DNA of 64,000 nucleotides. It comes from Candidatus Binataceae bacterium. GTDB lineage: Bacteria > Desulfobacterota > Binatia > Binatales > Binataceae. Shown piece after piece: positions 45,728-63,710 of the stretch (position 1 is the first letter of the stretch; each line of letters opens with the position of its first letter). The DNA lies in contig DATLTX010000058.1 of the NCBI GenBank assembly GCA_035533435.1, positions 27-64,026 of the forward strand. The letters are read 5' to 3'. Under the pieces are notes generated by a model, which saw nothing but the letters and a program-made list of their open reading frames with translations, was not told the DNA's origin and made no database searches. The position numbers and the translations under genes were made by a program.

Positions 45728-45733
45728 CCGGCG

Positions 45734-48596: not shown

Positions 48597-49676
48597 TCAG
48601 ATTGGCAGCTCGAGTGGAATCGCGAGGCGGCTCGTGCGATCGATTCCCGCCATCTTGAGCCGATGCAGGTACTCGTGGATCTGCTTCTTGAACAGGTAGC
48701 CCAGCTTCGCAAAGCCTTCGTCAATATGCTCGAGGCCGCCGCCGGCCAGAATCGCGCGCGCTTCGACGGTGTCCTGGGTCTGGTTGAGGCTGAATGTCGC
48801 TTCCTCTCCGCGTTGCAGGATGTCATGAATCTCGGGCTCGCGCTCGGGATGCTTCTCGAGGAAATACTTCAGATGCATCGTGCCGTACGCGACGTGGCGC
48901 GCTTCGTCCTGCATGCAGAGCCGGAAGATTTTCTTTTCCACCGCGGACAGCGCAAACATCTCGCCGTTGCGGAACAGGGTCAGCACAAAGCCCTCGCCCA
49001 GGATGTGCATCAGCGCGCTGGCGGTGGTGAAGTTCGGCGCTTCCAGGATCACGCGCAGCAATTCCTCGGAGTCGGGTGAGGAGCGCAGCAGGCCGCCGCC
49101 GTTGGCCAGCGCGCGTTTGCGGAACACCTCCATATGCCGCGCCTCATCGAAGATTTGCGAGGCCAAAAACAATTTCACTTCGTGAAAGTCGTGGTTGATG
49201 CGATGCAGCCATTTGGCGGGCATGTCGCCGGCGACGAACTCGATCTCGGCAAGGTTGGTGCACACCTGGCACATCGCCTTCTCGAGATCATCGCGCTGCG
49301 GCCGAAGCTCATCCCACGGAATGTCGCGCGCCGAACTCCATTGCCGCGCCACCGCTTCGTCGTAAAGGTGGGCAACGTTTTCGGCCCATACCAGGGATTT
49401 GTCGTTGATGTCGTAGCAGCCGAGCGAGGGCATATCGTCGGGAATCTCTGAACCGCGCGGCGCCATGCTGCCGTATATCGATCCGTGGTCCGGCACGGCG
49501 CCATACTGTCCGACCAGGTTGATGTCTTCCAGCCCGAGGCCGCGCTCGTCGCGCGGCGTCGCCCTGACGCCCCAACCGGTGGGATTCGAGTTCATCCAGC
49601 TCAAATCCAGCTTCCCCTTGCGTACGTCGCTCAGGGTATCAAGGGCTTTCTCGACGCTTGGACTGACATGCGGCAT
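48597..49676 (-). CDS. ferritin-like diiron-carboxylate protein (AurF/CmlI-like oxygenase family, tentative)
   Basis: Two E-x(~30)-DEARH motifs (AEIEF...DEARHMEVF ; GEGF...QDEARHVAYG), typical of carboxylate-bridged di-iron four-helix-bundle enzymes. Confidence 0.5.
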   Translation of the reverse strand: MPHVSPSVEKALDTLSDVRKGKLDLSWMNSNPTGWGVRATPRDERGLGLEDINLVGQYGAVPDHGSIYGSMAPRGSEIPDDMPSLGCYDINDKSLVWAENVAHLYDEAVARQWSSARDIPWDELRPQRDDLEKAMCQVCTNLAEIEFVAGDMPAKWLHRINHDFHEVKLFLASQIFDEARHMEVFRKRALANGGGLLRSSPDSEELLRVILEAPNFTTASALMHILGEGFVLTLFRNGEMFALSAVEKKIFRLCMQDEARHVAYGTMHLKYFLEKHPEREPEIHDILQRGEEATFSLNQTQDTVEARAILAGGGLEHIDEGFAKLGYLFKKQIHEYLHRLKMAGIDRTSRLAIPLELPI

Positions 49677-49724
49677 GGCACTGCTCTCCTTGGCGGTAAT
49701 CGGAATAGATGCGTTTCCCGATAA

Positions 49725-49740
49725 CGCAAAGGACGTGCCA
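49725..49740 (-). promoter_or_regulatory. candidate sigma54 promoter for diiron-protein operon
   Basis: Minus-strand TGGCACGtcctTTGCg, perfect consensus. The adjacent 6-bp inverted repeat TGCGTT-N7-AACGCA (49710..49728) overlaps -12/+1. Confidence 0.6.
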
Positions 49741-49907
49741 TCGCGATTACGTCCGGCCTCGGCAGCTGGCGGGGGAACCGCCCGCTTTATCCGAACTTAC
49801 TAACCGTTCGGTAGATTACCGCGCCAATTGCGACGATGCCGGGATGACGCCGATCGAATCAAGTGTGTCCGATCGAACCGCCCGCCGCCCGATCGTCTCT
49901 GGACCTT

Positions 49908-50732
49908 TCAATCGTTCGCCACGGTCTCCTCGTCGCCGGCCAGCGCCTCAAGCACGTCGGTGGTGGTGATAATGCCGGCCAGCGTGCCGTCTTCGATCAC
50001 GAGCAATGCGCCGATTTTGCGTTCGCGCAACAGTCGTGCCGCATCGCGGATCGAGCTGTCGGGCGCCACCGTGATTAGCTGCTGAGTCATCGCCTTTGCC
50101 GCCTCGACACTATCGAGGCGGCCGGTATGGCTGCGCACATCGCGGTCGGTCACGATCCCGACCGGCTTCCCGTCCTTGACGATCGGAATGCTTCGGAAGC
50201 CGCCTTCGATCATCTTGTTTTCGAGTTCGGACAGTTTGTCCCCGGGAGCGCCGACGATCGGGTTGGCCGTCATCCAGGTCCTGACCCGGTCGCGATCGGG
50301 CGCTTCCTGGCGAGTGGTCAGAACGGGGCAATTCGCTTCGCGCAGGACGATTTCTGCAATACTGCCGAGAAAGAAATGCTTGAACCCGCGCCGCCCGTGC
50401 GTTGCCATCACGATCACGTCGGCGCGCACCTTGCGCGCGGCCTTGAGGATCGCGCCGGCCGGTTCGCCGATCTGGGTCATCAGTTCGTACTTCAATCCGG
50501 CCAGCCGCTTGCGCGCGATTTCCAGGAGTTTGCGATGCGCCGCGTCCTCCTGGCCCTTGTACAAATCCACATAGACCGGCATCGCAGTCGGCTGCACGAT
50601 CAGCGGAACCACGTGAAGTACGTACACCGTTCCATCATGCTCGCGGGCCAGCTCGGCCGCGGTCGAGAGCGCCGATAGCGAGTTTTCGTCGAAATCAATC
50701 GGGCAAAGAATTCTGCGATATGGAAAAGGCAT
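49908..50732 (-). CDS. universal stress protein domain fused to CBS pair (paralogue of 40042..40845)
   Basis: Same Usp(VMATHGRRGFKHFFLGSIAE)+2xCBS architecture as the first Usp-CBS protein. The N-termini are near-identical (ILCPVDLDDN / ILCPIDFDEN). Confidence 0.8.
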   Translation of the reverse strand: MPFPYRRILCPIDFDENSLSALSTAAELAREHDGTVYVLHVVPLIVQPTAMPVYVDLYKGQEDAAHRKLLEIARKRLAGLKYELMTQIGEPAGAILKAARKVRADVIVMATHGRRGFKHFFLGSIAEIVLREANCPVLTTRQEAPDRDRVRTWMTANPIVGAPGDKLSELENKMIEGGFRSIPIVKDGKPVGIVTDRDVRSHTGRLDSVEAAKAMTQQLITVAPDSSIRDAARLLRERKIGALLVIEDGTLAGIITTTDVLEALAGDEETVAND

Positions 50733-50787
50733 TGTCGTGCCTCCTTGATGGCATTCAGCTCGTCTCTGTCATCACAATAGTAGTGAT

Positions 50788-50803
50788 AGCGATTGTCGTG
50801 CCA
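50788..50803 (-). promoter_or_regulatory. candidate sigma54 promoter for Usp-CBS gene 2
   Basis: Minus-strand TGGCACGacaaTcGCt. Identical 12-mer CGATGGCACGAC as the 39998 site. Confidence 0.55.
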
Positions 50804-50975: not shown

Positions 50976-52253
50976 TCACCCCAGATAAGCAAAGTCGCCA
51001 TGAGCATTGATGCTGAGCGTGTTCGCGATTGGAGAACCGGCAAAACCCATGCGCTGTTCGTTGTACTCGATTTGGTAAATCACGCCGCTCGAACCCGGAA
51101 CGAACAGCCCGCCCTCTGGCGCGAGCACGAAGATCTTGTTCCTCCCATCCGAATCGGAAGCCCCCAAATAGAGCGCTCCAGCGTCGGTCAGGGAAGGATC
51201 GCCGAGCCATCGGAACTCGGATCCGAATGGTGTGAGTTGCCCGCGCTGGATGGGAAGACTCAGACTGCCGTCGCGAATGGTGATAATTGCAGGCAGCCGG
51301 GCGCACACGGCAAGCACGGCCATCATCCCGCCCGGAGTCAGAGCAGGCCGGTCCAACGACAGATGCGAAATTGGCGCAAGAGCGGTGAGAGTGCCTGTCG
51401 TAAGTACCCGGGTCATCTCGCCTTCGTGGTACAGAAACAGCGCCTGACCTGTGGGCGTGTTGCTCACAAAGGCAACCTTCACGCCATTGGGAGAGGAAAC
51501 CGCGCGGGGAAGTCCAAACGCATCGAAACGAGTCCGATCAGGCCCGAGTTTCCCTTGTACTGCCACTTCGCTGGTGCCCGCCGATGACGCGAGCAGCACC
51601 GCCTGCCGTTCCGCGGAATCGCTCGCGCCCGCATCGGCGCCGATCCAGGCGTTGAATGCAACCGCGCCATTTCCGGCGGGTCCTTGACTACCATATCCGA
51701 TTACCCGGATCCGGTGATGCTGGAGTGTGTAGTCACCGGCATGCGCAAGGCAGGAGATAACACCCTTCGAATACAGGAACAGGGTGTCCGCGCCGGATGC
51801 CTCGGTGGCCATGAAAGCGATCTCACCTGAGCCGCCGGCGGTGGGACGGGGATCCACCCGCAGGACCGGAGAGCATCCCGACTTCGCGTGAACCGAATCC
51901 AACAACCGCCGGAGCCGGAAGGGTGGCGAGTCAGCAGGCTTGGCGATAAAGATTTCCCAATGCGGAGCTTTAGGGGCCGCGCGTAACTCGGCGGCGAACA
52001 CCACGCTTCCGTCCGGCATCATCGAGGGCAAGCCCAGGTCGTCAATTGTTTCGCCGGCGATTTGTGTTACTCCAGTCGACGCGACTGCGGCGATCTTTCC
52101 GTTAGCATCGCTGGCATAGAGCACTTGACCGATTTTCCTGCTGAGCCCGGCACCGTCGAGGCCCTGCAGGGAGAGAACAAAGGCACTGGCGGTGGCAGCC
52201 CATACGAGCACCGCCACCGTCACGATACCGACCAATCCGCGCTTGATACTCAT
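50976..52253 (-). CDS. secreted repeat (beta-propeller-like) protein of unknown function
   Basis: Signal peptide (AATASA). Repeating Gly/aromatic beta-strand units. No catalytic motif. Confidence 0.45.
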   Translation of the reverse strand: MSIKRGLVGIVTVAVLVWAATASAFVLSLQGLDGAGLSRKIGQVLYASDANGKIAAVASTGVTQIAGETIDDLGLPSMMPDGSVVFAAELRAAPKAPHWEIFIAKPADSPPFRLRRLLDSVHAKSGCSPVLRVDPRPTAGGSGEIAFMATEASGADTLFLYSKGVISCLAHAGDYTLQHHRIRVIGYGSQGPAGNGAVAFNAWIGADAGASDSAERQAVLLASSAGTSEVAVQGKLGPDRTRFDAFGLPRAVSSPNGVKVAFVSNTPTGQALFLYHEGEMTRVLTTGTLTALAPISHLSLDRPALTPGGMMAVLAVCARLPAIITIRDGSLSLPIQRGQLTPFGSEFRWLGDPSLTDAGALYLGASDSDGRNKIFVLAPEGGLFVPGSSGVIYQIEYNEQRMGFAGSPIANTLSINAHGDFAYLG

Positions 52254-52288
52254 CAGTTACTCCTGGCTCGAGCCGCCACCGCGTCCGC

Positions 52289-53626
52289 TTAGTTTCCCGT
52301 AACCCAGCGGCCGCCTTCGGCGCTTGCCGCTACCTGCTCGGGCAGGAACCAGTTGCGCTGTACCGCTCCCATGTTGATGAACCATGAATCGTGGGCTTGT
52401 TCGTCGCGCGACGGATGATAACAGACGCTCGAGAAGCCGGTCTGGATGTTGACCGTCGAGGAACCAACCTGGAACTCGCGCTTGAACGGGTAGATCGCGA
52501 TCCGGGCGCCCGGCTCCGGCCGATCGCTATAGGCCATCCACGAAGTGTAATTCAGGAACAACTGGCCAGTACGGTCGTAGAGATCCACGGACATCGGAAA
52601 GTCGGCCTCTGAATCGACGTAAATGATTTCCTTCGAGTAGAGACTTTGATTGAACCGCGCCACGGCCTGCACGATATAGTAATGGCGTGGGGCCCACTCG
52701 TCGGGGCAGTGACTGGCGCCGCCGTCGGTTGGGCATCGGCGATCCGGCACTTCAGAGACCGCCACCGCGCCGAGCATCGTCTTCTCGCCCAGGAACTTGA
52801 AGTCGTAGAATTGGTTTTTGCCGCTCCATCCTTCCCAATGATTTGGATCGTAAATGTTTGGGCCTGACGCGGTGTCGCTCAACTGGTAATTGAGGCGGCG
52901 CAGACGCCGTGATCCGGGCGTCCAGCTCCAGATATCGTCGGAACGTTTCGCGTCGGCGTAGCGGAACTTCAACTCCAGGCCGCCGCGGTCGGTCGCGGGC
53001 GCGAGAATTGGCCCGTTGAAGGTCATGTACAAGCGCCCGGTTGTCAGGAAGTCCGGGTCGGTGGGAATAGGATCGACCTCGGTGCGGCCAACCTCGTTGT
53101 AGCCGGCATAGTGGCCCACCGCGACGTCATAAATGGAAAAGTGAGGCTTGTTTCTGCCCCAATTCACACTGTCGCAGTCATAGTAGCGAAGGTCGTAATC
53201 ATCGGTCGAAATTGGGCGGAACATTTCGTTCCACATGACCTTTACGCCCGCGTCCCGATCGTTGGCGTCCACCGCGGGGAAGGGTTCGCCCGAGACGTAT
53301 CCGATCAGGCTTCGCCGATCGGGAGAGAGCCGGACCTGGCTTGCGTATTTCTCGGTTGCCTCCTGGTAAGGCGGCGGCCAGTCAATCCGCGCCGACGGAA
53401 CAACTTTGATCGTCATCCCGTTCAGCACGCGCGGATATTGGCCTGGGCTGAGCAGGTCTTTTACCTTGTAAGCGTTATCCGGGGTAATGAAATCACCCGG
53501 CTTCACCTGCGCAAGCGCGCTCTTGACCGGAAGGCCGATTAACATAACCAGCGCCACAGCCAAGGCGATGGTCCAATCGATCGCACCCCGCGCTCGCCAC
53601 GAATCTGATATGTCCATTCGGTGCAT
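52289..53626 (-). CDS. DUF1329-like (LolA-fold) periplasmic protein
   Basis: Start corrected to ATG at 53626, preceded by AAGGAGG-N8. N-terminal signal/TM. The ITPDNAYKVKDLLSPGQY region resembles the DUF1329 N-terminal motif as remembered. Confidence 0.5.
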   Translation of the reverse strand: MHRMDISDSWRARGAIDWTIALAVALVMLIGLPVKSALAQVKPGDFITPDNAYKVKDLLSPGQYPRVLNGMTIKVVPSARIDWPPPYQEATEKYASQVRLSPDRRSLIGYVSGEPFPAVDANDRDAGVKVMWNEMFRPISTDDYDLRYYDCDSVNWGRNKPHFSIYDVAVGHYAGYNEVGRTEVDPIPTDPDFLTTGRLYMTFNGPILAPATDRGGLELKFRYADAKRSDDIWSWTPGSRRLRRLNYQLSDTASGPNIYDPNHWEGWSGKNQFYDFKFLGEKTMLGAVAVSEVPDRRCPTDGGASHCPDEWAPRHYYIVQAVARFNQSLYSKEIIYVDSEADFPMSVDLYDRTGQLFLNYTSWMAYSDRPEPGARIAIYPFKREFQVGSSTVNIQTGFSSVCYHPSRDEQAHDSWFINMGAVQRNWFLPEQVAASAEGGRWVTGN

Positions 53627-53684
53627 GTTTTTCGCCTCCTTGGAGAGTTGGCGCCTCGTCACACGCATTAGGGTCAATACCGCG

Positions 53685-53700
53685 AGCATCGGCTGTGCCA
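53685..53700 (-). promoter_or_regulatory. candidate sigma54 promoter for DUF1329/secreted-protein operon
   Basis: Minus-strand TGGCACagccgaTGCt, ~60 nt upstream of the corrected ATG 53626. Confidence 0.45.
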
Positions 53701-54030
53701 ATACCGCCGGCCGGGATTTATCCAGATTCTAACGGGTGTTAGATTGACTCGGCGGCGCGCTCTGCACTGCGACGATGGCGCATTTAGCGTCACTTTTCGC
53801 CGACCTGATTCCTCCGGTTACACCTTTGCGCCGCAAAGCTGGGCGCGCCGGCTCGATCGCGCGATGATCGCCCTCGACCGCGGGATGCGGCCCGGCGCTC
53901 GTTACAGCGCGCCGCCGATGTATCCGAATGCACCATCGCGGGTTGAACTCGCTGATTCCGACCGGCATCCTAATCTCAGCCTGTCCCTCTGCCAGCCTCG
54001 GAATCCTATGGGTTCGTCATCCGCCGTCGG

Positions 54031-54046
54031 TGGCAGCCTAATTGCT
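54031..54046 (+). promoter_or_regulatory. candidate sigma54 promoter for CBS/P-type ATPase 7-gene operon
   Basis: TGGCAGcctaaTTGCT with GG-N10-GC, 36 nt upstream of ATG 54082. Confidence 0.55.
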
Positions 54047-54081
54047 CTGTATGATCGCGTTCTCGACCGGAGGTGGCTGTA

Positions 54082-54474
54082 ATGAGAATCGCAAACCTGA
54101 TGACGCGGGAGCCGGTGAGGGTTGGCCCGCGTGATACGCTGGAAAAGGTTCAAGGCCTGATGAAGCAAGGCGGCTTTCGCCGCGTGCCAGTGGTCGATAA
54201 CGACTCGATAGTTGGAATCCTGACTGAACGTGACCTGCGCGCGCATCACAGCACCATGGCGGAAACGCGGGTCAACGCCGTGATGAGCGCACCGGTGGTG
54301 ACGCTCGAATCGGGCGCTTCAGTCGAGGAAGCCGCGCGCGTGATGCTGCGCAACAAGATCGGCGGGCTGCCGATTGTCGAGCGGGGAAAACTCGTCGGGA
54401 TTCTGACCTCGAGCGACGTTCTGAAGGCGTTTCTGCATGTTGTTGATGCGGCAAAAAAGATCATGGAGCCGTGA
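54082..54474 (+). CDS. CBS domain pair protein
   Basis: Two CBS motifs. ATG start with GGAGG-N8 RBS, so 54082 is preferred over the GTG at 54073. Confidence 0.8.
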   Translation: MRIANLMTREPVRVGPRDTLEKVQGLMKQGGFRRVPVVDNDSIVGILTERDLRAHHSTMAETRVNAVMSAPVVTLESGASVEEAARVMLRNKIGGLPIVERGKLVGILTSSDVLKAFLHVVDAAKKIMEP

Positions 54475-54537
54475 CCGGTCCCGGAATATCGTCAGGAATC
54501 GGCGGCACGAACCAGCAAAACAACTAAAGAGGACTCT

Positions 54538-55068
54538 GTGATGACAGGCGAGCGACTCGAAACCGGCAAGGGAAAAATCCGCAGTCTCAACAGGCGCGGC
54601 ACGCGCTCGGACAAGAGTCCGCCCGTGGTGCGCAAGGCGCGCAGCTACTCTGACCCTTCGATCTGCGAAAAGTGCGGCTCGGTTTATACCTCGAAAACCT
54701 GGCGCGAGCGCCGCCCCCTTACGCGTGCGCTGATGAATCAGGCCACCTGGGCGACCTGTCCCGCCTGCGAACAAGTGGACAAGGGACAGTACTTTGGCCG
54801 AGTCTCGCTGTCCGGGCCGTATCTGATCGGCCACGTCGATGCGATCCGCGCGCGTATCGCGAACGTCGAGCGGCGGGCGCGCTTCACGCAACCCGAACGC
54901 CGCGTGGTCGCGGCGGACTTCGACGGATCGACCCTCGAGGTGCTGACCAGCTCGCAGAAGCTGGCGCATCGCATCGCCCACGAAATCGAGAAAGCTTTCG
55001 GTGGCAGCGTGACCTATTCGTGGTCGGATAGCGACGGCACCCTGGCGGCGACCTGGCATCGAGAGTAG
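54538..55068 (+). CDS. zinc-ribbon (2x CxxC) protein of unknown function
   Basis: CEKCG...(24 aa)...CPAC Cys4 ribbon at the N-terminus with a conserved-looking C-terminal domain. No family assignment possible by eye. Confidence 0.45.
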   Translation: MMTGERLETGKGKIRSLNRRGTRSDKSPPVVRKARSYSDPSICEKCGSVYTSKTWRERRPLTRALMNQATWATCPACEQVDKGQYFGRVSLSGPYLIGHVDAIRARIANVERRARFTQPERRVVAADFDGSTLEVLTSSQKLAHRIAHEIEKAFGGSVTYSWSDSDGTLAATWHRE

Positions 55069-57668
55069 TGGCCGACGTGGGCGCGGCGGGCGAATCGGGC
55101 GAGCTTGCGCGCGCAGCCACGCGAACCGGCGACCAACGCTCGTATCGCGGCCTTGACCGTGCCGAGGCCGCGCGCCGCCTTGCGCGACTGGGCCCCAATG
55201 AGTTCGTGCGGCTTCGATGGTGGGATCCGGTGGTGCGTTTTCTTCGCACCGCTGCGGATCCGATGGCGCTGATGCTGGCCGCCGCCGCCGCCGCGTACTA
55301 TGCGCTCGGCGAGCGCACCGATTCATATGTCCTTCTCGCGGCGATTGTTCCGGTGCTGGCGGTCGATGTGCTCCTTGCGGCGCGCTCGCGGGCGGCGCTG
55401 CGCAAACTGGCCGGCGCGGTCGCGGCGCGCGCACGCGTCATCCGCGACGGAACCGAAGTGGATATTCCCACCCGGGAAGTCGTTCCCGGCGACGCGTTGC
55501 TGCTCGAACAGGGCGACGTGGTGCACGCCGACGCGATCGTCCGCGCCAGCTCGAATCTGATCGCCGATGAGTCCCAATTGAGCGGCGAATCCGAGCCGGT
55601 CGCCAAGCTGCCGATTGCCGGCGCACCCGGCGACCCGAACCGCGTGTACGCGGGTTCGCGCGTCCTCGAGGGCAATGCACTGGTCGAAGTCACCGCAACC
55701 GGACCGAAAACCCGCTATGGCGATCTCGCGCGACTGACCGCCGCGGTTACGCGCCGCTCGACCCCGCTCGAGCGCAGGACCGCGCGGATCGTCGGCTGGA
55801 TGATCGCGGCGGCGATCGTTGTCGCGACGCTCGTGTTCGCGTTGCGAATACTGGCAGGCGTGCCCGCGGCGAGCGCGTTCCTCTACGCGATCAGCCTTGC
55901 GATGTCCGCCGCCGGCGAAGAATTCCTGCTCGTGCTGACCCTGTTCCTCAGCCTTGGCGCGTACCGGCTCGGCCGTCACGGAGTTCTGGTGCGCCGGTTG
56001 GCGAGCGTTGAAACCCTCGGTTCCACAACCGTCATATGCCTGGACAAAACCGGTACGCTGACCGCTGGCGAGTTCGCGCTCGAGACACATGATGCTCTCG
56101 ACCGCGACGGCACCGACGCGGCACTCTTGGAAGCCGCCGCGCTGGCGTGCGAGGCGCGTCCCGCCGATGCAATGGAACGCGAGATTCTGGCGCATTGCGT
56201 AACGCACGGAGTTGACGCGGACGCGTTGCATGCGCGATGGCGGCTGGTCCACGATTACTCATTCGATCCGGCCGGCAAACACATGTCGCACGTCTGGATC
56301 GAACGCGCGCAAAGCTCCGCCGCGGCCGCCGGGAAAATCGTGGCCAAAGGAGCGCTCGAGGGTATCCTCGAGCACTGCGACATCGCACCTGATCAAGCTG
56401 ACCGCGCCAAACGCGAAAACGCCCGGATGGCCTCGGTCGGGATGCGCGTGCTGGCGGTCGCCGGACGTGACGGACTGGCGCGCGAGTTCACCGGCGCACG
56501 CTGGCAAGACGAACGCGGGCTGCATCTGTTCGGACTGCTGGGATTTCGCGATCCATTGCGGCCCGCGGTTCCCGCCGCAGTCGCGCTATGCTACCGCGCG
56601 GGTATCAAGCTCAAGTTGATCACGGGGGACCATGCGCTAACCGCGCACGCGGTTGCCGAAGCCGCCGGGATGGGCGGCCACGCGTCGGAGATCATCACCG
56701 GATCGCAGCTCGACGCGCTGAGCCCGTCCGCTTTCGATCGCGCCGTGGACCGCTGCACGATTTTCGCGCGCACCCGGCCCGAGCAGAAGTACGCAATTGT
56801 CGAGGCGCTCAGACGCGCCGGCGAAGTGGTCGCGATGACCGGCGACGGGATCAATGACGCGCCGGCTCTCAGGCGCGCCGACCTGGGCGTTGCGATGGGG
56901 CGGCGCGGCACCGAAATCGCCCGTACAGCGGCGGATATCGTCCTGCTCGACGACGATTTCTCGGCGTTGGCGGTCACGATCCGCGAAGGCCGCAGGCTGC
57001 TCGAATCTATTCAGCGCGCGTTCCTATATCTGATCGGCTTCAAAGTGATGCTGGTGCTGGTTGCTTTCAGCGCGCCGATTCTGGGCCTGCCGCTGCTGCT
57101 CGTGCCAGTGACTCTTGTGTGGCTCGAACTAATTGTCCATCCGGTTTCCGCGCTGGCCTTCGAGGGCGGTATCCCCGACGAAGACGTGATGGCGCGGCCG
57201 CCGACTCGGCCCTCGGCTCCGCTGGTCGATCGATCGAGCGCCATCCGCGCTGCTATCGCGGGCGCGCTGCTCGCGGCGGCGGCGCTGAGCCTGTTCGCGA
57301 TGCGGATGCGTGCGGGAGAGAATTATGCGCGGACCGTTGCGATGGTGGTAATCGTGGCGGGCAGCGTGATGCTGGTAATTGCCGAGATGGCGGGTGCGCA
57401 GCCCTGGTCGCGTCTGCACGTGCCGCGGAGCCTTCGCTTCTGGACCGTGATGCTTGCCGTCGCGGCGAGCCTGCCCATCTTCATTTCGATCAAACCGATC
57501 GCGTCGCTGTTGATGCTACAATCGATTAGGCCGGCGGATTGGTCTATAGCATTGGCCGCCGCGGCCGCCGCCGTCGGCTGGCGCGCATGCGGCGCTCCCT
57601 CCTCCCGAGACTCGAGCGACGCACGATATGACGCCTCGGTCGCGAGTAGTCGCGGGGATGTCCGCTGA
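55068..57668 (+). CDS. P-type cation-transporting ATPase (P2/Ca2+-Mg2+-like)
   Basis: Phosphorylation motif DKTGTLT, hinge MTGDGINDAPAL, and 8-10 TMs. The GTG start overlaps the preceding stop. Confidence 0.85.
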   Translation: MADVGAAGESGELARAATRTGDQRSYRGLDRAEAARRLARLGPNEFVRLRWWDPVVRFLRTAADPMALMLAAAAAAYYALGERTDSYVLLAAIVPVLAVDVLLAARSRAALRKLAGAVAARARVIRDGTEVDIPTREVVPGDALLLEQGDVVHADAIVRASSNLIADESQLSGESEPVAKLPIAGAPGDPNRVYAGSRVLEGNALVEVTATGPKTRYGDLARLTAAVTRRSTPLERRTARIVGWMIAAAIVVATLVFALRILAGVPAASAFLYAISLAMSAAGEEFLLVLTLFLSLGAYRLGRHGVLVRRLASVETLGSTTVICLDKTGTLTAGEFALETHDALDRDGTDAALLEAAALACEARPADAMEREILAHCVTHGVDADALHARWRLVHDYSFDPAGKHMSHVWIERAQSSAAAAGKIVAKGALEGILEHCDIAPDQADRAKRENARMASVGMRVLAVAGRDGLAREFTGARWQDERGLHLFGLLGFRDPLRPAVPAAVALCYRAGIKLKLITGDHALTAHAVAEAAGMGGHASEIITGSQLDALSPSAFDRAVDRCTIFARTRPEQKYAIVEALRRAGEVVAMTGDGINDAPALRRADLGVAMGRRGTEIARTAADIVLLDDDFSALAVTIREGRRLLESIQRAFLYLIGFKVMLVLVAFSAPILGLPLLLVPVTLVWLELIVHPVSALAFEGGIPDEDVMARPPTRPSAPLVDRSSAIRAAIAGALLAAAALSLFAMRMRAGENYARTVAMVVIVAGSVMLVIAEMAGAQPWSRLHVPRSLRFWTVMLAVAASLPIFISIKPIASLLMLQSIRPADWSIALAAAAAAVGWRACGAPSSRDSSDARYDASVASSRGDVR

Positions 57669-57708
57669 TGGCGAACCTGGATTCACGAATGCGCGAGGAG
57701 AATTCGGC

Positions 57709-58173
57709 ATGCCGAAAAAAGTTTTCGAAAATGCGAGTCATAAACCGCACGCCGCAAACGCGGCGCGAAGGTGTGCGACCGGCGCTATCGCAGTAGCCGC
57801 GATCCTGGCGATTGCGATCGGCTCCGCACGCGCCGCCCAACCCGCCGGGCAGGCCGACTATCAGCAGTATTGCTCCGACTGCCACGGCAAGGACGCGAGG
57901 GGCAATGGCCCACTGGTGAAGCAAATCCCGATGGCGCCGCCACCGAGCGACCTGACCCTGCTCGCGAGCGCGCGCGGCGGAAAGTTTCCGTTCGATGACG
58001 TGGTCGATGTAATCGACGGGCGCAAGGCAATACCGTCCCACGCGCGTATCCAGATGCCGTTTTGGGGCGTTACGCTGCAGAAACCCGGTCAGGAATTTTC
58101 GCCTGCGAGCGACGCCGCGGTAAAGCAACGGATTCAGGCAATCGCGCGCTATCTCGAAGGCCTTCAGCGATGA
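57709..58173 (+). CDS. periplasmic monohaem c-type cytochrome
   Basis: Signal peptide and a CSDCH haem motif. GAGGAG RBS. Confidence 0.65.
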   Translation: MPKKVFENASHKPHAANAARRCATGAIAVAAILAIAIGSARAAQPAGQADYQQYCSDCHGKDARGNGPLVKQIPMAPPPSDLTLLASARGGKFPFDDVVDVIDGRKAIPSHARIQMPFWGVTLQKPGQEFSPASDAAVKQRIQAIARYLEGLQR

Positions 58174-59054
58174 CGAGCCGTGCTGCGCGAGTGCACTGCT
58201 TTCCCCGCGACGCCCGTCTGGCGCGCAGGGTCGCGGCACGCGCAGGTCTGGCCTGCGCGAAGATTCGCGTGCACCGCTTCCCCGACGGCGAGTCGATGCC
58301 GCTGGTTGCGTCAGCGCCGGGCAAGAATGCGATCCTGGTGCGCGCGCTCGACGGTCAGGGCGCCAACCTGTTCGATACTCTTCTGGCCGCCGACGCGTTG
58401 CGGCGCGCGGGCGCGCGGCGCGTAACGCTGGTCGCGCCGTATCTTCCCTACATGCGCCAGGACAAGGTCTTCCGCCCGGGCGAACCGATCTCGCAACGCG
58501 TGATTGGCGACTTGCTCGGCCGCTCTTTCGACCGCGTGATCACGGTCGAGCCGCATCTGCATCGCATCGCGCGCCTGGGAGAGGTCGTCGCCTGCCAGGC
58601 GGATTCAATCACGGCGGCGCCGGCGATTGCCGAGTGGGTAAAGCGCAATCGGCGCGACAGCCTGGTGGCCGGCCCGGATGCGGAATCACGTTCCTGGATT
58701 GAATCGATCGCGCGCCAGGCGGACACGGCGTCAGCGGTTGGCGTAAAGCATCGCGATAGCGACCGGCGGGTGCGGGTGCGCTTCGCCGCGCTCGCGCGTC
58801 GCTCGCGCGCGATTATTGTCGACGATATTGCAAGTTCGGGAGCGACGCTCGCCGCCGCCGCGCGGGCATTGCGCACGCGGGGAATCGCGGCGATCGATGT
58901 AATCGTGGTGCACGCGATTTTCGCCCCGGGCGCCATCGCGCGGATTCGGCGCGCGGGCGTGCGCCGGATCATCTCGTGCGACACGATCCGCCATCCGACC
59001 AACGCCATCAGCATCGCGCCGCTGCTGGCGGCGGCGCTCGAGAGGAAGACTTGA
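58170..59054 (+). CDS. ribose-phosphate pyrophosphokinase-like phosphoribosyltransferase
   Basis: Prs-like N-domain and PRPP-binding motif IIVDDIASSGATL. Start ATG overlaps the preceding stop (ATGA). Confidence 0.7.
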   Translation: MTSRAARVHCFPRDARLARRVAARAGLACAKIRVHRFPDGESMPLVASAPGKNAILVRALDGQGANLFDTLLAADALRRAGARRVTLVAPYLPYMRQDKVFRPGEPISQRVIGDLLGRSFDRVITVEPHLHRIARLGEVVACQADSITAAPAIAEWVKRNRRDSLVAGPDAESRSWIESIARQADTASAVGVKHRDSDRRVRVRFAALARRSRAIIVDDIASSGATLAAAARALRTRGIAAIDVIVVHAIFAPGAIARIRRAGVRRIISCDTIRHPTNAISIAPLLAAALERKT

Positions 59055-60458
59055 ATGCGCGAGCAAGGCACCGGCCATCCCTCCATTCTGCGCTTTCTGG
59101 GCGCGGCCGGCACGGTTACGGGAAGCAGGTTTTTGCTCACTGGCGGCGGACGCAGGGTACTGATCGATTGCGGCTTGTTCCAGGGACTCAAGGAACTTCG
59201 GCTGCGCAACTGGGAGCGGTTTGCGGCGGATCCGAAGAGCCTCGATGCGATCGTGATTACGCATGCGCATCTTGATCACAGCGGATACCTTCCGTCGATC
59301 GTGCGCGACGGCTATCGCGGGCGGATTCACGCCACGGCTTCGACCGTTGATCTGTGCCGAATCCTGTTGCCCGACAGCGGACACTTGCAGGAAGAGGAAG
59401 CGGAATACGCCAATCACGCGGGCTATTCCAAACACGCGCCGGCGCTGCCGCTGTACACTGAAGAAGACGCGCTTCGCACTCAGCAATATTTCACGCCGGC
59501 GCAGTTCGCTGAGCGCGTAGAAGTGGCAAACCGCATTCACGCGACGTTTCGCAGCGCGGGGCACATTCTCGGCTCCGCCAGCATCCTGCTTGAAACCCCT
59601 TCGCGCCGCCTGCTATTCAGCGGCGATCTCGGGCGCCCCAGCCATCCGCTGATGCGGCCACCCGCGCCGCTGCCCGAGGCGGAAATCGTCGCCGTCGAAT
59701 CGACTTACGGCGATCGGATCCACGAGGATCAGAAGTCCCTCGACGCGTTCGCCGAATCGATCGCGCAGACCGCCGCGCGCGGCGGTGTGATCGTTATCCC
59801 GTCGTTCGCCGTCGATCGCACTGAGGTTCTGCTGTTCCATTTGCGCGCGATGATCCAATCCGGCCGCATTCCGGGATTGCCCATTTACGTCGATAGTCCA
59901 ATGGCGCTGGCCGCGCTCAAGCTGTACAAGCGAGCCATCCTGAGCGGCGGCGCCGAGATTCGCCCTGAAGTCGCCGGCCGGCCCGAGGTGCTCGATCCCG
60001 GCCTGACCTCGGAAGTAACCTCGCGCGACGAATCGATCGCGCTCAACGGCCTCGACGGACCGATGATCATCATCTCGGCGTCCGGGATGGCCACCGGCGG
60101 CCGGGTGTTGCATCATCTTTCGCGCCGCCTGCCCGACGCGCGCAACGCGGTCATCCTGGTTGGCTACCAGGCCGAAGGAACCCGCGGGCGCGCGCTGCTC
60201 GAGGGTGCATCGTCGGTGAAGATGCTGGGCCGCTATGTCCCGGTGCGCGCGCAGGTGGTTAACGTGCCGGCGTTTTCGGTGCACGCCGACCGCGCTGAAA
60301 TTCTGGCGTGGCTCGCGACCGCTCCGCGGCGCCCGGAGCTGGCGTTTATCGTGCACGGCGATCCGGCCGCGGCGCAGTCGCTGTGCGCGGCGGTGCGCAA
60401 GGAGCTCGGCTGGAACGCCGTGGTTCCACGCCATCTCGAACAGGTTCGAATCGACTGA
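59055..60458 (+). CDS. MBL-fold metallo-hydrolase of the beta-CASP family
   Basis: HxHxDH motif (ITHAHLDHSG), beta-CASP motifs, and a C-terminal RNA-specificity-like domain. Confidence 0.75.
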   Translation: MREQGTGHPSILRFLGAAGTVTGSRFLLTGGGRRVLIDCGLFQGLKELRLRNWERFAADPKSLDAIVITHAHLDHSGYLPSIVRDGYRGRIHATASTVDLCRILLPDSGHLQEEEAEYANHAGYSKHAPALPLYTEEDALRTQQYFTPAQFAERVEVANRIHATFRSAGHILGSASILLETPSRRLLFSGDLGRPSHPLMRPPAPLPEAEIVAVESTYGDRIHEDQKSLDAFAESIAQTAARGGVIVIPSFAVDRTEVLLFHLRAMIQSGRIPGLPIYVDSPMALAALKLYKRAILSGGAEIRPEVAGRPEVLDPGLTSEVTSRDESIALNGLDGPMIIISASGMATGGRVLHHLSRRLPDARNAVILVGYQAEGTRGRALLEGASSVKMLGRYVPVRAQVVNVPAFSVHADRAEILAWLATAPRRPELAFIVHGDPAAAQSLCAAVRKELGWNAVVPRHLEQVRID

Positions 60459-60468
60459 GGAGGACGCG

Positions 60469-61974
60469 ATGTTTCGGCTGCGGCATCTATGCCTGGATAC
60501 TCTGCGCGAGCACGTGATCGTGATTCACGAACACGCGGTGCGAGCGGGCAATCTTGGCTTCAGTCCGCTGGATCGCGCGGTAGTGATGGGCCTGGTACCG
60601 GGCGGCGGCGCGCGCCACGAGATCACCGGCGTACTGAATTTCTGCCTCGACGACCTGATCGCGCCCGATGAAATCGGCGTCTCGGACCAGGCCTTTCGCG
60701 ATCTCGGCCTGCCCGAAGGAGCGCCGGTCGAAGCGACGCTGGCGGCCGCGCCGCGCAGCGTCGATCATGTGCGCGCGAAACTTGGCGGTACGCGGCTCGA
60801 CCGCGCCGCGTTTGACGCGATCCTGTCCGACGTCGTGCGGCATCGGTACTCGCGCGTCGAGCTCACGATGTTCGTGCTGGCGTGCGCGCTCAGACGCCTC
60901 GACCTCGACGAGCTCTGCTATTACACGCAGGCGATGATCGCGACCGGCGAGTCGCTGGATTTCGGCGGTGCGAAGGTCGCCGACAAGCACTCGATCGGCG
61001 GAGTTCCAGGCAATCGGACCACGATGATCGTGGTTCCGATCGTCGCGGCGCTCGGAGTCCTGATGCCCAAAACCTCGTCGCGCGCGATCACCAGCCCGGC
61101 GGGCACCGCGGACACGATGGGTGCAATCGCCATTGTCGAACTGAACCCGGCGCGGATGCGCGAGATCGTCGGCCGCGTCGGCGGCTGCATCGGATGGGGC
61201 GGTTCGCTCAGCCTTGCGCCCGCCGACGATATTCTGATCACCGTCGAGCGGCCGATGGAGATCGATACGGAAGCGCAGATGGTGGCTTCAATTCTGGCCA
61301 AGAAGAAAAGCGTCGGCGCAACCGATGTCGTGATCGATATTCCCGTCGGACCCACCGCCAAGGTTCGCAGCCAGGCCGCTGCCGAGCATCTGGCGGGGCT
61401 GTTCCACAGCATCGCCGAGCGGATCGGATTGCGTATCGAGGTCGAGAGCACGCTCGCACTTGGGCCGATCGGACGCGGAATCGGGCCGCGGCTCGAGGCG
61501 CTGGACGTGCTCTCGGTGCTTGGCGGCGAAAGCGTTCAGCTTGCCGATCTGCGGGAAAAATCGCTCTACCTTGCCGCGCGGATTCTCGAGATGACTGGCG
61601 CGGTCGCGCCGCACGGCGGTTACCGTGCGGCCCAGCGCACGCTCGACTCGGGAGCGGCGCGCAAAAAATTCCAGGAAATCGTCGCCGCGCAAGGCGCGCG
61701 CGAGCTGGCGCCCGAGGCTCCATATCGATGCGAGATCGCGTCGGAAGCCGACGGCAGAATCAGGGACATCGATTGCCTCGAGATCGCGCGAGTGGCAAAA
61801 CGCGCCGGGGCGCCAGCCAATATCAGCGCGGGAATCAGGCTTTTGAAGACCGTCGGAGAAGTGGTTGGCCGCGCCGAGCCGCTGTTTGAGATTCATGCCG
61901 CAAGCGCGGCGCAATTGGAGTTTGCACGGCAATACGCGGCGTCGCATCCGGGGATGTTCAGATTCGGTTTTTGA
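60469..61974 (+). CDS. thymidine/AMP phosphorylase family protein (glycosyl transferase family 3 fold)
   Basis: DKHSIGGVPGNRTT and TSSRAITSPAGTADTM motifs of pyrimidine-nucleoside phosphorylases. Start ATG with GAGGAGGA RBS. Confidence 0.75.
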   Translation: MFRLRHLCLDTLREHVIVIHEHAVRAGNLGFSPLDRAVVMGLVPGGGARHEITGVLNFCLDDLIAPDEIGVSDQAFRDLGLPEGAPVEATLAAAPRSVDHVRAKLGGTRLDRAAFDAILSDVVRHRYSRVELTMFVLACALRRLDLDELCYYTQAMIATGESLDFGGAKVADKHSIGGVPGNRTTMIVVPIVAALGVLMPKTSSRAITSPAGTADTMGAIAIVELNPARMREIVGRVGGCIGWGGSLSLAPADDILITVERPMEIDTEAQMVASILAKKKSVGATDVVIDIPVGPTAKVRSQAAAEHLAGLFHSIAERIGLRIEVESTLALGPIGRGIGPRLEALDVLSVLGGESVQLADLREKSLYLAARILEMTGAVAPHGGYRAAQRTLDSGAARKKFQEIVAAQGARELAPEAPYRCEIASEADGRIRDIDCLEIARVAKRAGAPANISAGIRLLKTVGEVVGRAEPLFEIHAASAAQLEFARQYAASHPGMFRFGF

Positions 61975-61992
61975 GCGTTTGACCGTGCGGCG

Positions 61993-63498
61993 CTATTCGA
62001 GACCGTACTTAGCGATCTTCGCATAGAGCTTCTTGCGCGAGATCTTGAGCAGCTTGGCCGCGGCGACTTTGTTGCCGCCGGTGCTCTCGATCGCGCGGCC
62101 AATCAGATCGCGCTCGGCGTCGGCGAAGCTACCCACGCTTTCACCGCCGAACCCGGCGGGAGCCGCCGCGCGCACCCCGGAGATCGCTTCGGGCAAATCA
62201 ACCAGGCGCAGCTCGGATGCGCGGCCAAAGGTAAAGGCGCTCTCGATCGCGTTGGCCAGTTCGCGCACGTTTCCCGGCCACTGATATGCGCTCATCGCCT
62301 CGAGCGCCGCTCGCTCGATTCCCACCACCGGCGCCAGGCGCATCCCGCGTTCGTTCATCACCTCGACAAAGTGATCGACGAGCAGCCCTATGTCCTCGAG
62401 CCGGTCGCGCAGCGGAGGCACCGCAAGCACGCTGGCCTGAAGCCGGTAGTACAGATCTTGCCGCAAGAGACCCACGCGGAGGGCTTCTTCAGGATCGCGA
62501 TTGGTCGAGGCGATCAGCCGCGCGTTGACTGCAATCTCGCGGGTTGCGCCGACAGGACGCACAGTCCGTTCCTGCAGGACGCGCAAGAGCTTGCTCTGGG
62601 TCTCGGCGCTCATCTCGGTAACTTCATCGAGCAGCAGCGTCCCACCCTCAGCGGCGCGAAACAGGCCCTCGTACTCGTTGTTCGCGCCGCTGAACGCGCC
62701 GCGTTTGTAGCCGAACAATTCGCTTTCGATCAGATCGCGCGGAATCGCGGCGCAATTCAGCGCGACGAACGGCGCGTTCGGCTTGGCGCCGCATTCGTGA
62801 ATTGCGCGCGCCACCAATTCTTTCCCCGTCCCGCTCTCCCCCACGATCAGCACGGTCCCGCGCGTCGCGCCCACCGCCTCGATCCGCTCGTACAGCTTGC
62901 GCATCGCAGGGCTCGCGCCGACCAGGCCGTGAAAGCGCGTGCGCTCGCCGGCGGGCAGCGCTGTCGCCTCGCGCTCGAGCGCCTGGATTCGCGCACCCGA
63001 GACCGCGGTGGTCGAGCGAAAGTAGGTGTCCGCCAGGATGATCATCCGGCAATGACTCAGCTTGTCGAAGGAAAGGTAGGTCTTGGGCAGCGACGGTGGA
63101 AAGACCGGAAACACCGCGGTCGCGCTTTCCTCGAACAGATGCATCGAAATGATCAGCTCGGAAAACGGAACTCCCCGGTCGGCCAGCGTGCGCCCAACCC
63201 GGCGGATATCCGCGGCGAAGCCCTCCATGTCGCGGGCCAGCAGATCGCGCAAAGTAGTGTCCAGCTCGGAGCCGAAGATCTCGAGGAACTCGGTCCTGGT
63301 CAGGGCGCGTGAATCACCGAAGTGCAGTACATAGAGGTTGTACCAGTTGGCCATCACTTCGTCGCGGTGGCGGCGAATCGACTCGAAGACTGGCGTCAGA
63401 GCCTCCAGCTCCTCGTCCCATAGAAGGTGGAAATATCGGGGCGCGGTGGACTGCGTTTTTGCGGGGTTTGAAGATTCAGACGGTGGCTTCATGCGCAA
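61993..63498 (-). CDS. sigma54-dependent transcriptional activator (bEBP) with non-receiver N-terminal sensory domain
   Basis: AAA+ Walker A GESGTGKE, GAFSGA (GAFTGA variant) sigma54-contact loop, and a C-terminal Fis-type HTH. The N-terminal ~190 aa lack the receiver Asp signature. Confidence 0.85.
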   Translation of the reverse strand: MRMKPPSESSNPAKTQSTAPRYFHLLWDEELEALTPVFESIRRHRDEVMANWYNLYVLHFGDSRALTRTEFLEIFGSELDTTLRDLLARDMEGFAADIRRVGRTLADRGVPFSELIISMHLFEESATAVFPVFPPSLPKTYLSFDKLSHCRMIILADTYFRSTTAVSGARIQALEREATALPAGERTRFHGLVGASPAMRKLYERIEAVGATRGTVLIVGESGTGKELVARAIHECGAKPNAPFVALNCAAIPRDLIESELFGYKRGAFSGANNEYEGLFRAAEGGTLLLDEVTEMSAETQSKLLRVLQERTVRPVGATREIAVNARLIASTNRDPEEALRVGLLRQDLYYRLQASVLAVPPLRDRLEDIGLLVDHFVEVMNERGMRLAPVVGIERAALEAMSAYQWPGNVRELANAIESAFTFGRASELRLVDLPEAISGVRAAAPAGFGGESVGSFADAERDLIGRAIESTGGNKVAAAKLLKISRKKLYAKIAKYGLE

Positions 63499-63673
63499 GT
63501 CTCAATGGTGACGGGGAGTGCCGTGTCCAACGGCTTAGTGTCGCCGATCGTAACACGCGACGCGCTCGTTGTACCCATCGAACGCATGTGACGCAACGAC
63601 AACATGTTCGTCCGAGGTAATCTTGCGCAAATGCATGCCGATTTTCGGACTCGCTTCAATCGGACCGCCATGC

Positions 63674-63689
63674 TGGCACGATTCGCGCA
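63674..63689 (+). promoter_or_regulatory. candidate sigma54 promoter divergent from bEBP gene
   Basis: TGGCACGattcgcGCa. -24 perfect, -12 GC only. 22 nt upstream of ATG 63711. Confidence 0.35.
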
Positions 63690-63710
63690 TCCCATGATTG
63701 CGTAGAGTAT

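Follow-up and report, generated by a model that had tools for sequence, protein, structure and literature searches.

A predicted sigma-54-dependent operon of seven genes in a putative stress-survival island of Candidatus Binatota

Seven genes behind a near-consensus sigma-54 promoter

We analyzed a stretch of 64,000 nucleotides (hereafter the window) from contig DATLTX010000058.1 of a Candidatus Binataceae bacterium, host phylum Candidatus Binatota, in which an original prediction, made from the letters of the DNA, had described a sigma-54-driven operon with dormancy-regulon-like content. Of this genome, the analysis covered the 64 kb of the window and excerpts of 20 kb from the contig. The operon consists of seven genes on the + strand (54082-61974), which encode, in this order, a CBS-pair protein, a Zn-ribbon protein, a P-type ATPase, a cytochrome c, a protein resembling phosphoribosyl pyrophosphate (PRPP) synthase (Prs-like), a beta-CASP metallo-beta-lactamase (MBL) protein and a thymidine phosphorylase (TP)-family protein, hereafter TP-like (Table 1). 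Both the list of open reading frames (ORFs) and independent public gene calls support seven co-directional genes behind a sigma-54 element, as had been proposed; the independent calls are those of ENA ERZ25039477 contig_68110 (642,668 bp), which has the same gene layout and is numbered L091 among the loci used for comparison. The gaps between successive genes are 66 (63 from the alternative GTG start of the Zn-ribbon gene), -1, 40, -4, 0 and 10 nt; the last five are as originally listed, and the first replaces a value of 64. Every domain label given to the seven proteins was upheld by Pfam and NCBIfam.

The -24/-12 element TGGCAGCCTAATTGCT reads TGGCAG-N5-TTGCT and obeys the sigma-54 rule, with GG at -24, GC at -12 and the spacing of TGGCAC-N5-TTGC. 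The transcript would be expected to begin at around 54057, which leaves about 25 nt to the ATG of the CBS gene; this ATG is itself preceded by GGAGG. The exact motif TGGCA-N6-TTGC occurs four times in the 64 kb where 0.44 copies are expected, and a count of 4 was reached in 0 of 100 shuffles. All four exact sites stand 30-55 nt before a start codon in the correct orientation, and they precede an HlyD/ABC/ABC-2 operon, an NTP-transferase/FtsH operon, a ferritin-like ORF and the seven-gene operon. A weighted scan adds variant sites at both genes for fused universal stress protein (Usp) and CBS domains (TGGCACGAC-N-TCGC), at a phosphoketolase/acetate kinase pair and at a DUF1329/DUF7453 pair. Over at least 35 kb, the island is put at no fewer than four putative sigma-54 units, and probably eight or more, this operon among them.

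On the + strand of 53600-63700 no sigma-70-like site was found, and terminator-like hairpins numbered 7 against 7.9 expected, which is chance level. An inverted-repeat search of 53650-54100 returned no repeat of 12 nt or more. Since an Rfam scan of the whole window returned no RNA family, the 350-nt leader appears to hold no riboswitch. A megablast search of the operon against the PLSDB plasmids gave no match. These analyses confirm, on sequence grounds, that the operon is real and that its seven genes make up one predicted sigma-54 operon.

The promoter is retained in related loci. An orthologous seven-gene operon in L081-L083, whose TP-like protein is 83% identical, carries the promoter TGGCAGCCGAATTGCT. 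In L001, L005 and L008, where the CBS/Zn-ribbon pair is separate from the Prs-like/beta-CASP/TP-like trio and the CBS protein is about 50% identical, the CBS gene is preceded at about 43 nt by TGGCAGG-N4-CTTGCA.

Enhancer-like palindromes accompany the sigma-54 sites

All copies of a 17-bp palindrome, TGnnnCGATCGnnnYCA, in the window and in L001, L005, L008 and L081-L083 lie 49-122 bp from a sigma-54 element. A single copy in L009 has no sigma-54 element nearby, and 1.14 Mb of non-Binatia loci contain just 2 copies. In L001, L005 and L008 the palindrome sits between divergent sigma-54 sites, and the -12 variant TCGC is again found beside it. Upstream of the orthologous operon in L081-L083 there is a perfect palindrome, TGACGCGATCGGCGTCA, at 122 bp, in a position equivalent to that of the degenerate copy in the window (Table 1), which may be functional there. 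Between the divergent sites of the NTP-transferase/FtsH operon and the first Usp-CBS gene, the perfect 21-bp palindrome CTGTGGCGCTGATCGCCACAG differs from the TGnnnCGATCGnnnTCA palindrome, which suggests either a second activator or a variant binding site.

FNR/Anr boxes (TTGAT-N4-ATCAA with at most one mismatch) number 3 in the window against 1.09 expected; all lie at or within coding sequence and none in a promoter region. The window and L081 also have in common the palindrome TCTAAC-N4-GTTAGA (53728-53743 in the window) and the block TTCCGGTTACA. These lie at about -300 and -220 from the promoter in the window and at about -170 and -85 in L081; because the distances of both blocks differ between the two loci, they point to an insertion in the leader region of the window.

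A sigma-54 activator with a predicted globin-like N-terminal domain converges on the operon

A gene for a sigma-54 enhancer-binding protein converges on the operon, at a distance of 18 nt from the last stop codon. Residues 190-500 of its product match Sigma54_activat, AAA_lid_14 and HTH_8 in Pfam, and the gene holds the same position in L081 and L091. No other sigma-54 activator turned up in the window ORFs that were scanned; Pfam scans of 50 window ORFs gave one AraC regulator and this activator as the only regulators. L002, L003 and L006 also have sigma-54-activator-like fragments, located upstream of their TP locus. The sigma-54 wiring of the original prediction is supported by a promoter kept in orthologous loci, a lineage-specific enhancer-like palindrome and an activator gene conserved beside the operon.

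A Pfam scan of the first 170 residues of the activator (62989-63498, - strand) returned no family, and a profile search of the PDB with this N-domain gave no significant sequence match. Among 1.84 billion proteins its homologues form 164 cluster representatives. Ten of them were scanned with Pfam: seven are sigma-54 activators, one is a PAS-histidine kinase and two are GAF proteins; in each of them the match falls in the N-terminal part, and one gives a weak Pfam Protoglobin match. The AlphaFold (AF2) model of the domain is all-helical, with a mean confidence (pLDDT) of 85, and its top Foldseek matches in the PDB are exclusively globin folds, including the globin-coupled sensors AfGcHK and GsGCS (5OHF and 2W31 are among the matches). 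Close homologues from Binatia all keep H149, and nearly all keep H24, H59 and H120. The model suggests that the N-domain likely has a globin-like sensor fold; haem or gas sensing is a candidate, unproven property of it.

Like the globin-coupled sensors HemAT, AfGcHK, DosC and haem-binding RsbR, the protein has a predicted N-terminal sensor-globin fold, a long helix and an output domain. It differs from them in that the output is a sigma-54 AAA+ activator, the family is tiny, and a proximal His was not found in the would-be F helix. Among the best 15 of 74 literature matches, no paper joins 'globin-coupled' with sigma-54 activators.

The distal genes encode an AMP-phosphorylase-like/Prs-like pair and a beta-CASP RNase

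The TP-like protein scores 581.1 bits against PRK04350 (cut-off 434) and 511 bits against TIGR02645 (cut-off 434.6). In the PDB it matches the AMP phosphorylase of Thermococcus kodakarensis (4GA5) with E = 2e-86 and true thymidine phosphorylases with E = 4e-34, in line with the suggestion that it is of the AMP-phosphorylase type and not an ordinary thymidine phosphorylase. An extra N-terminal domain of about 95 residues precedes Glycos_trans_3N, and the stretches HSIGGVPGN and SSRAITSxAGTAD align with the active-site motifs of 4GA5. No deo genes, the context named originally as that of an ordinary enzyme, were present in any neighbourhood inspected. A look-up of the exact sequence gave no record of the protein, and its closest homologues come from Binatia metagenome-assembled genomes.

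The label phosphoribosyltransferase, originally given to the preceding enzyme of the pair, holds for its fold; more specifically, the protein is a Prs-like PRPP synthase of the PRK07199 subfamily (NF005537, 336.3 bits against a cut-off of 322). Its best PDB match is the class III Prs of M. jannaschii (1U9Y, E = 1.4e-36), and YxRQDK and DDIxSxG are retained. The beta-CASP protein encoded between the two scores above the cut-offs for Lactamase_B (52.8 bits), Beta-Casp (105.2 bits) and RMMBL (64.2 bits) in Pfam, and among PDB entries it comes closest to the Thermus ribonuclease TTHA0252 (E = 6e-83).

Archaeal AMP phosphorylase (T. kodakarensis TK0353, PDB 4GA4-6) has the same extra N-terminal domain and TP fold, and a PRPP synthase is common to the archaeal AMP pathway and the window; the archaeal proposal runs from ribose-5-phosphate through PRPP and AMP to ribose-1,5-bisphosphate. 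In the window, by contrast, we find the sister family TIGR02645, a bacterial host, an RNase partner, and neither isomerase nor type III RuBisCO among the ORFs scanned. An archaeal route linking ribose-5-phosphate and PRPP has been discussed (PMC5113843). Our literature search found no bacterial characterization of the TP-like/Prs pair.

The proximal genes encode CBS, NMD3-like, ATPase and cytochrome c proteins

The first protein of the operon has a single Bateman module (Pfam CBS, 110.9 bits) and is 130 aa long in L091 and L081 as well; its gene adjoins the Zn-ribbon gene in L001, L005, L008, L081 and L090. The Zn-ribbon protein, identical throughout to a protein recorded for a 'Candidatus Binataceae bacterium' (100%), probably belongs to the BCAM0308 ('lxa') family, with two CxxC pairs, and is NMD3-like. 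It reaches 93.9 bits against NF040826 (lxa_BCAM0308; cut-off 100) over 144 of 153 model positions and 17.7 bits against Pfam NMD3 (PF04981), under the cut-off of 24.9; many of its homologues carry precomputed PF04981 matches. A profile search of the PDB with the family gave no significant sequence match. The AF2 model (pLDDT 79) has as its top four Foldseek matches in the PDB, all weak, chains of pre-60S particles, in entries that presumably contain Nmd3 (the matched chains are unnamed in the output). With NMD3, a large-subunit binder, the protein has sequence and fold signals in common, whereas its length is about 175 aa against 350-500 aa for NMD3. In other loci, the genes for its homologues have Usp, HSP20, CBS and sigma-54 activator genes as neighbours. 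The literature on BCAM0308 amounted to one incidental mention.

CBS-domain proteins silence archaeal ribosomes in dormancy (PMC13454478, PMC13324472). Compared with the archaeal hibernation factors Sri, Dri and HibA, the arrangement here is one in which a CBS-pair gene immediately precedes an NMD3-like gene, and by analogy the CBS and NMD3-like proteins may act as a pair on ribosomes. Membership of the CBS protein itself in Sri or HibA was rejected, because it lacks an HPF domain and its CBS domains number two where four would be expected. Most bacterial CBS matches were placed outside the Sri and HibA clades by the Sri authors.

The ATPase is P2-type, with E1-E2_ATPase, Hydrolase and Cation_ATPase_N/C domains in Pfam. 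Among NCBIfam models the generic TIGR01494 alone exceeds its cut-off, and no Ca-ATPase model reaches its own; in the PDB the protein is closest to the Listeria Ca-ATPase LMCA1 (E = 4e-92). The ion site deviates from that of LMCA1 in both M4 (IPEAL is replaced by AGEEF) and M6 (NLVND by ELIVH), so that M6 has a His in place of the ion-binding Asp and M4 is without the canonical proline motif (PEGL). This deviant site is kept in L081, and L002 has SEEL with the same M6 His. Relatives in L004, L044 and L078, where they are encoded beside TP-Prs in Sphingomonadaceae, have PEEFP and DP. With these departures at M4 and M6, the CtpF-type assignment made originally is not supported, and neither is a function as a Ca2+ pump. 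We also observed that the ATPase subfamily recurs near TP-Prs in 8/80 loci of the survey described below. The cytochrome c is monohaem, with one CSDCH motif and a hydrophobic N-terminus; it matches Pfam Cytochrome_CBB3 at 27.3 bits, just at the cut-off, and is 154 aa long in L091 and L081 too.

The TP-like and Prs-like genes form a widespread and mobile pair

A scan of one genome per species gave at least 594 loci with a TP-like relative, 80 of which were kept for synteny counts. In 67/80 loci the TP-like gene has a Prs-like gene no more than 10 kb away, and in 62/80 the two are adjacent on the same strand; a beta-CASP gene is present in 18/80. The loci come from Binatia, Alpha-, Beta- and Gammaproteobacteria, Acidobacteriota, Bacteroidota and Thermodesulfobacteriota. 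Of the three genes, only TP-like and Prs-like travel together broadly, with beta-CASP joining them in about a fifth of the loci. Proteobacteria have TP followed by Prs, and Binatia have Prs, beta-CASP and TP in that order.

When 42 other window proteins were searched by tblastn against the 80 TP loci, almost none co-occurred with TP outside Binatia, which indicates that only modules are conserved and not the whole island. The seven-gene operon is thus a fusion, specific to its lineage, of modules that relatives have at separate places.

TP-like genes are also found on 124 plasmids, 49 of them conjugative. The Acidovorax plasmid p1-T1 carries an MBL-TP-Prs trio, and on the Azospirillum oryzae plasmid NZ_CP054617.1 (L087; 372496-380812) genes for a TP-family protein, an MBL hydrolase (540 aa), HlyD, RbbA and an ABC permease are consecutive. 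An HlyD/double-ATPase/ABC-2 set is likewise present in the window (31547-36732) behind a sigma-54 promoter and enhancer, and the lxa locus of Burkholderia cenocepacia has BCAM0302-0305. From this gene order the nucleotide module appears to be recurrently linked to an RbbA-type exporter. In L084-L086, L089 and L090, loci that carry the TP trio or a BCAM0308 homologue, an AAA_33 (zeta-toxin-like kinase) protein of about 540 aa is encoded beside Usp or Usp-CBS genes.

The gene set resembles low-oxygen loci of Proteobacteria

The original prediction had compared the gene set to actinobacterial DosR/DevR regulons. The M. tuberculosis DosR regulon is like it in kinds of genes only, namely Usp, a CBS pair (Hrp1/Rv2626c), a P-type ATPase (CtpF), nucleotide-related enzymes and sugar kinases; it has another class of regulator, and neither DosR, DosS or DosT nor any specific orthology was found in the window. 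The CBS protein does match Rv2626c (1XKF/1Y5H, E = 4e-7), but this match ranks below more than 50 other CBS proteins and is no better than that of generic pairs. The DosR/DevR comparison thus fell away, with no DosR-type regulator among the 50 ORFs scanned, whereas the stress and low-oxygen flavour of the set was supported.

Judged by gene content, the closest known system would be not DosR but the lxa locus of B. cenocepacia (BCAM0275a-BCAM0323), for which Sass et al. (2013) themselves drew the DosR parallel (PMC3721108). Table 4 of that paper lists a metal-dependent RNase (30-fold), FtsH (130-fold), a cation ATPase (15-fold), a cytochrome c (146-fold), ABC transport and six Usp (PMC3721108). 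Families common to lxa and the window are FtsH, MBL RNase, cation P-type ATPase, cytochrome c, ABC transport with its adaptor, acetate kinase and Usp, and probably BCAM0308. The two differ in regulation, in that lxa has an Anr/FNR-type motif (TGA-N6-TCA) and CRP-family regulators, whereas the window has sigma-54, an AAA+ activator, another palindrome and no enrichment of FNR boxes. They also differ in content: the text of the lxa paper names no thymidine-phosphorylase-family or PRPP synthase gene (PMC3721108) and the window has both; in the window, moreover, Usp is fused to CBS, phosphoketolase, glycogen enzymes and an N-ATPase are added, and the phylum is Binatota.

The trio itself has a counterpart in Bradyrhizobium diazoefficiens, where bll3115 (MBL), bll3116 (Prs) and bll3117 (TP family) are induced at 0.5% O2 (PMC6515984, Table 2). 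Protein levels rose by log2 2.9, 4.4 and 2.1 and transcripts 15.4-, 7.7- and 5.1-fold, respectively, and the three genes are absent from the listed NifA+RpoN or FixK2 targets (PMC6515984). The same three annotated families are thus consecutive in both organisms, in the order TP-Prs-MBL there and Prs-betaCASP-TP in the window; bll3115 is likened to the beta-CASP gene by its annotated family (MBL), not by sequence.

A proposed sigma-54-dependent module for survival of low oxygen or energy starvation

We favour, with a probability of roughly 0.6, the reading that this is a sigma-54-dependent operon within a stress-survival island of the kind found at low-oxygen and energy-starvation loci, and that it carries an RNA/nucleotide recycling module. 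The families of the island, which are Usp-CBS, CBS, BCAM0308, FtsH, beta-CASP RNase, P-type ATPase, cytochrome c, HlyD/ABC exporter, acetate kinase, phosphoketolase and glycogen phosphorylases, would match those of such loci (lxa and the microoxic proteome of Bradyrhizobium). Sigma-54 RNA polymerase on TGGCAG-N5-TTGCT would remain closed until remodelled by an AAA+ activator, most likely the convergent enhancer-binding protein, which would bind palindromes of the TGnnnCGATCGnnnTCA type and sense a redox, gas or energy signal through its globin-like domain. The operon would then deliver three modules: the CBS pair with the NMD3-like BCAM0308 protein and the P2-type ATPase; the periplasmic cytochrome c; and the widespread, horizontally mobile AMP-phosphorylase-like/Prs-like pair, joined here by a TTHA0252-type RNase. 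This third module could recycle RNA and nucleotides upon respiratory failure. The RNase would yield nucleoside monophosphates (NMPs), which the phosphorylase would convert with phosphate to base and ribose-1,5-bisphosphate; the Prs-like enzyme would turn ribose-5-phosphate into PRPP and back; and pentose phosphate would pass to the co-regulated phosphoketolase and acetate kinase to give ATP by substrate-level phosphorylation. The gene identities, the promoter and enhancer motifs with their conservation and the synteny counts come from the present analysis, and the low-oxygen induction of homologues from the literature; which signal is sensed, which activator acts and how the enzymes work are inferred.

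Several observations weigh against this reading. On the side of regulation, the enhancer copy at the operon matches in only 10 of 17 positions, which makes activation by the adjacent regulator less secure than in L081, and in nine Binatia loci no strong sigma-54 site precedes the stand-alone Prs/beta-CASP/TP trio, one weak site (L084) being found. As to the sensor, the Foldseek matches of the N-domain are weak (E of 4e-3 or worse, TM-score 0.43-0.78), the helix at residues 91-107, which by order would be the F helix, holds no His, and none of the conserved His residues is invariant in the wider family. With regard to the enzymes, the TP-like protein scores 445.1 bits against the AMP_phos equivalog TIGR03327, under the cut-off of 535, and neither ribose-1,5-bisphosphate isomerase nor RuBisCO was found among the window ORFs scanned. 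Finally, the low-oxygen part of the reading draws by analogy on homologues in two Proteobacteria that use other regulators.

The same observations on the sensor bear on the best-surviving alternative, in which the operon belongs to a sigma-54 regulon for starvation or stationary phase in general, one that answers to stress from nitrogen, carbon, energy or metal and not to oxygen, with the N-domain a non-haem globin-like ligand sensor as in RsbR and pXO1-118. Sigma-54 regulons classically respond to nutrient cues, and CBS and Usp domains sense adenine nucleotides, not O2. The empty F helix and the variable His residues fit such a sensor, as does the presence of the non-haem globin-fold sensor 3PMD among the fold matches; the profile search also listed an RsbR-type anti-anti-sigma chain, 7O0I, at a non-significant E = 0.95. 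However, the closest studied homologues, the lxa genes and bll3115-bll3117, respond to low oxygen, and the island is rich in fermentative routes to ATP and in respiratory components. We regard this alternative as unlikely, if a serious contender.

A second alternative concerns the enzymes. The TP-like and Prs-like proteins might form a biosynthetic phosphoribosyltransferase system, in which PRPP supplied by the latter serves the TP/TrpD-fold enzyme for transfer of phosphoribose to a base or other acceptor. The TP fold is common to the PRPP-using anthranilate phosphoribosyltransferase, a weak TrpD match was obtained, and the tight, ancient adjacency to a PRPP synthase fits a substrate-product relation. 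That match, however, amounts to 30 bits, against high identity to the characterized AMP phosphorylase over HSIGGVPGN and SSRAITSxAGTAD, and this makes the biosynthetic role doubtful in our view.

At its boldest, the low-oxygen reading would make the island an oxygen- or gas-responsive sigma-54 dormancy regulon under a new globin-coupled class of enhancer-binding proteins, the CBS and BCAM0308 pair an energy-sensing silencer of the large ribosomal subunit, and the trio a bacterial counterpart of the archaeal route from NMPs to pentose bisphosphate that turns RNA into ATP via phosphoketolase and acetate kinase in anoxia. We give this full version slim odds.

It is highly improbable that the genes are an anti-phage or toxin module that depletes nucleotides by means of a nuclease, a nucleotide phosphorylase and a phosphoribosyltransferase-fold protein. 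The beta-CASP protein has relatives in type VII CRISPR, its best NCBIfam match is Cas14 (342 bits against a cut-off of 800), and TP-like genes do occur on plasmids, many of them conjugative, as described above; yet PADLOC matches none of the seven proteins, a scan on which we rejected the defence-system reading, the flanking genes are metabolic or stress-related, the homologues are induced by microoxia, and TP-Prs is flanked by housekeeping and transport genes in the proteobacterial loci inspected. Least credible, and largely refuted, is an ordinary thymidine phosphorylase for nucleoside catabolism behind a chance sigma-54-like motif, in genes that are not one regulated unit: public annotation does read 'thymidine phosphorylase (family protein)', but the match to true thymidine phosphorylases is some 50 orders of magnitude weaker than that to AMP phosphorylase, the neighbourhoods inspected lack deo genes, and the promoter motif is conserved and statistically enriched.

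What would be new in the favoured low-oxygen and energy-starvation reading is sigma-54 regulation of lxa-type low-oxygen 'persistence' gene families, which are otherwise under FNR or DosR control. Binatota are abundant uncultured bacteria of soil and sediment, and the locus would bear on how they survive fluctuations of oxygen and energy. It also highlights three widespread families without an assigned function: the TP-like/Prs pair, the accompanying beta-CASP RNase and the BCAM0308/NMD3-like protein. Since these families are hypoxia-induced in Bradyrhizobium (the trio) and Burkholderia (the lxa locus), they could be tested there.

The surrounding island

The neighbours cited in the original prediction are present, namely two Usp-CBS genes, a further CBS gene, phosphoketolase and glycogen-mobilizing enzymes; the window also encodes acetate kinase, two glucan phosphorylases and a debranching enzyme. 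Coordinates are collected in Table 1.

Table 1. Predicted genes and DNA elements in the window, in order of position
Feature	Position	Strand	Remarks
Phosphoketolase gene	26570-29053	-	
Further CBS gene	29308-29817		
Enhancer palindrome TGTATCGATCGGAGTCA	31506-31522	+	Upstream of TGGCATCGCCGTTGC and the HlyD/ABC/ABC-2 operon
Sigma-54 site TGGCATCGCCGTTGC	31593-31607	+	Before the HlyD/ABC/ABC-2 operon
Sigma-54 site	39842-39856	-	For NTP-transferase/FtsH; divergent from 39998-40012
Perfect 21-bp palindrome CTGTGGCGCTGATCGCCACAG	39918-39938		Between divergent sites, ~60-80 bp from each
Sigma-54 site	39998-40012	+	For Usp-CBS gene; divergent from 39842-39856
Usp-CBS gene	~40000-40845	+	
Sigma-54 site TGGCACGTCCTTTGC	49726-49740	-	Before ferritin-like ORF; best site in the window
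Enhancer palindrome TGATTCGATCGGCGTCA	49845-49861	-	With sigma-54 site TGGCACGTCCTTTGC, ferritin-like ORF
Second Usp-CBS gene	49908-50768	-	
Variant sigma-54 site TGGCACGACAATCGCT	50788-50803	-	Before second Usp-CBS gene
Variant sigma-54-like site	53685-53700		DUF1329/DUF7453 pair
Degenerate enhancer copy TGTATCCGAATGCACCA	53919-53935	+	10/17 matches; 112 nt upstream of -24 element
Sigma-54 -24/-12 element TGGCAGCCTAATTGCT	54031-54046	+	Near-consensus
CBS-pair gene	54082-54474	+	130 aa; single Bateman module
Zn-ribbon gene	54541-55068	+	175 aa; alternative GTG start at 54538
P-type ATPase gene	55068-57668	+	866 aa
Cytochrome c gene	57709-58173	+	154 aa
Prs-like gene	58170-59054	+	294 aa
Beta-CASP MBL gene	59055-60458	+	467 aa
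TP-family gene	60469-61974	+	501 aa
Sigma-54 enhancer-binding protein gene	61993-63498	-	N-domain (~aa 20-165), AAA+ and Fis-type helix-turn-helix

Directly upstream of the operon and divergent from it lies the DUF1329 (LolA-like)/DUF7453 pair (50976-53701, - strand), which is kept in L081 and L091. The ferritin-like ORF (48597-49796, - strand) gave only faint matches, to DUF455 and to the ribonucleotide reductase small chain, both ferritin-like/di-iron families. On the + strand, 42961-48032 encodes a cytochrome c, a GltD-like flavoprotein with several 4Fe-4S domains, a Rieske protein, a cytochrome b and a multihaem cytochrome c, and from these families it appears to be a bc-type respiratory module of an unusual kind, partnered by an Fe-S flavoprotein.

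Farther away, 16235-23018 (- strand) holds an alternative F-type ATPase operon in the order beta, epsilon, ATPase_gene1 (AtpQ/I-like), ..., b, alpha, gamma, in which no delta subunit was detected; we take this layout to be that of the laterally transferred 'N-ATPase'. The ATPase operon is flanked by an amidohydrolase/glutathione S-transferase pair and a DUF3417 glucan phosphorylase.

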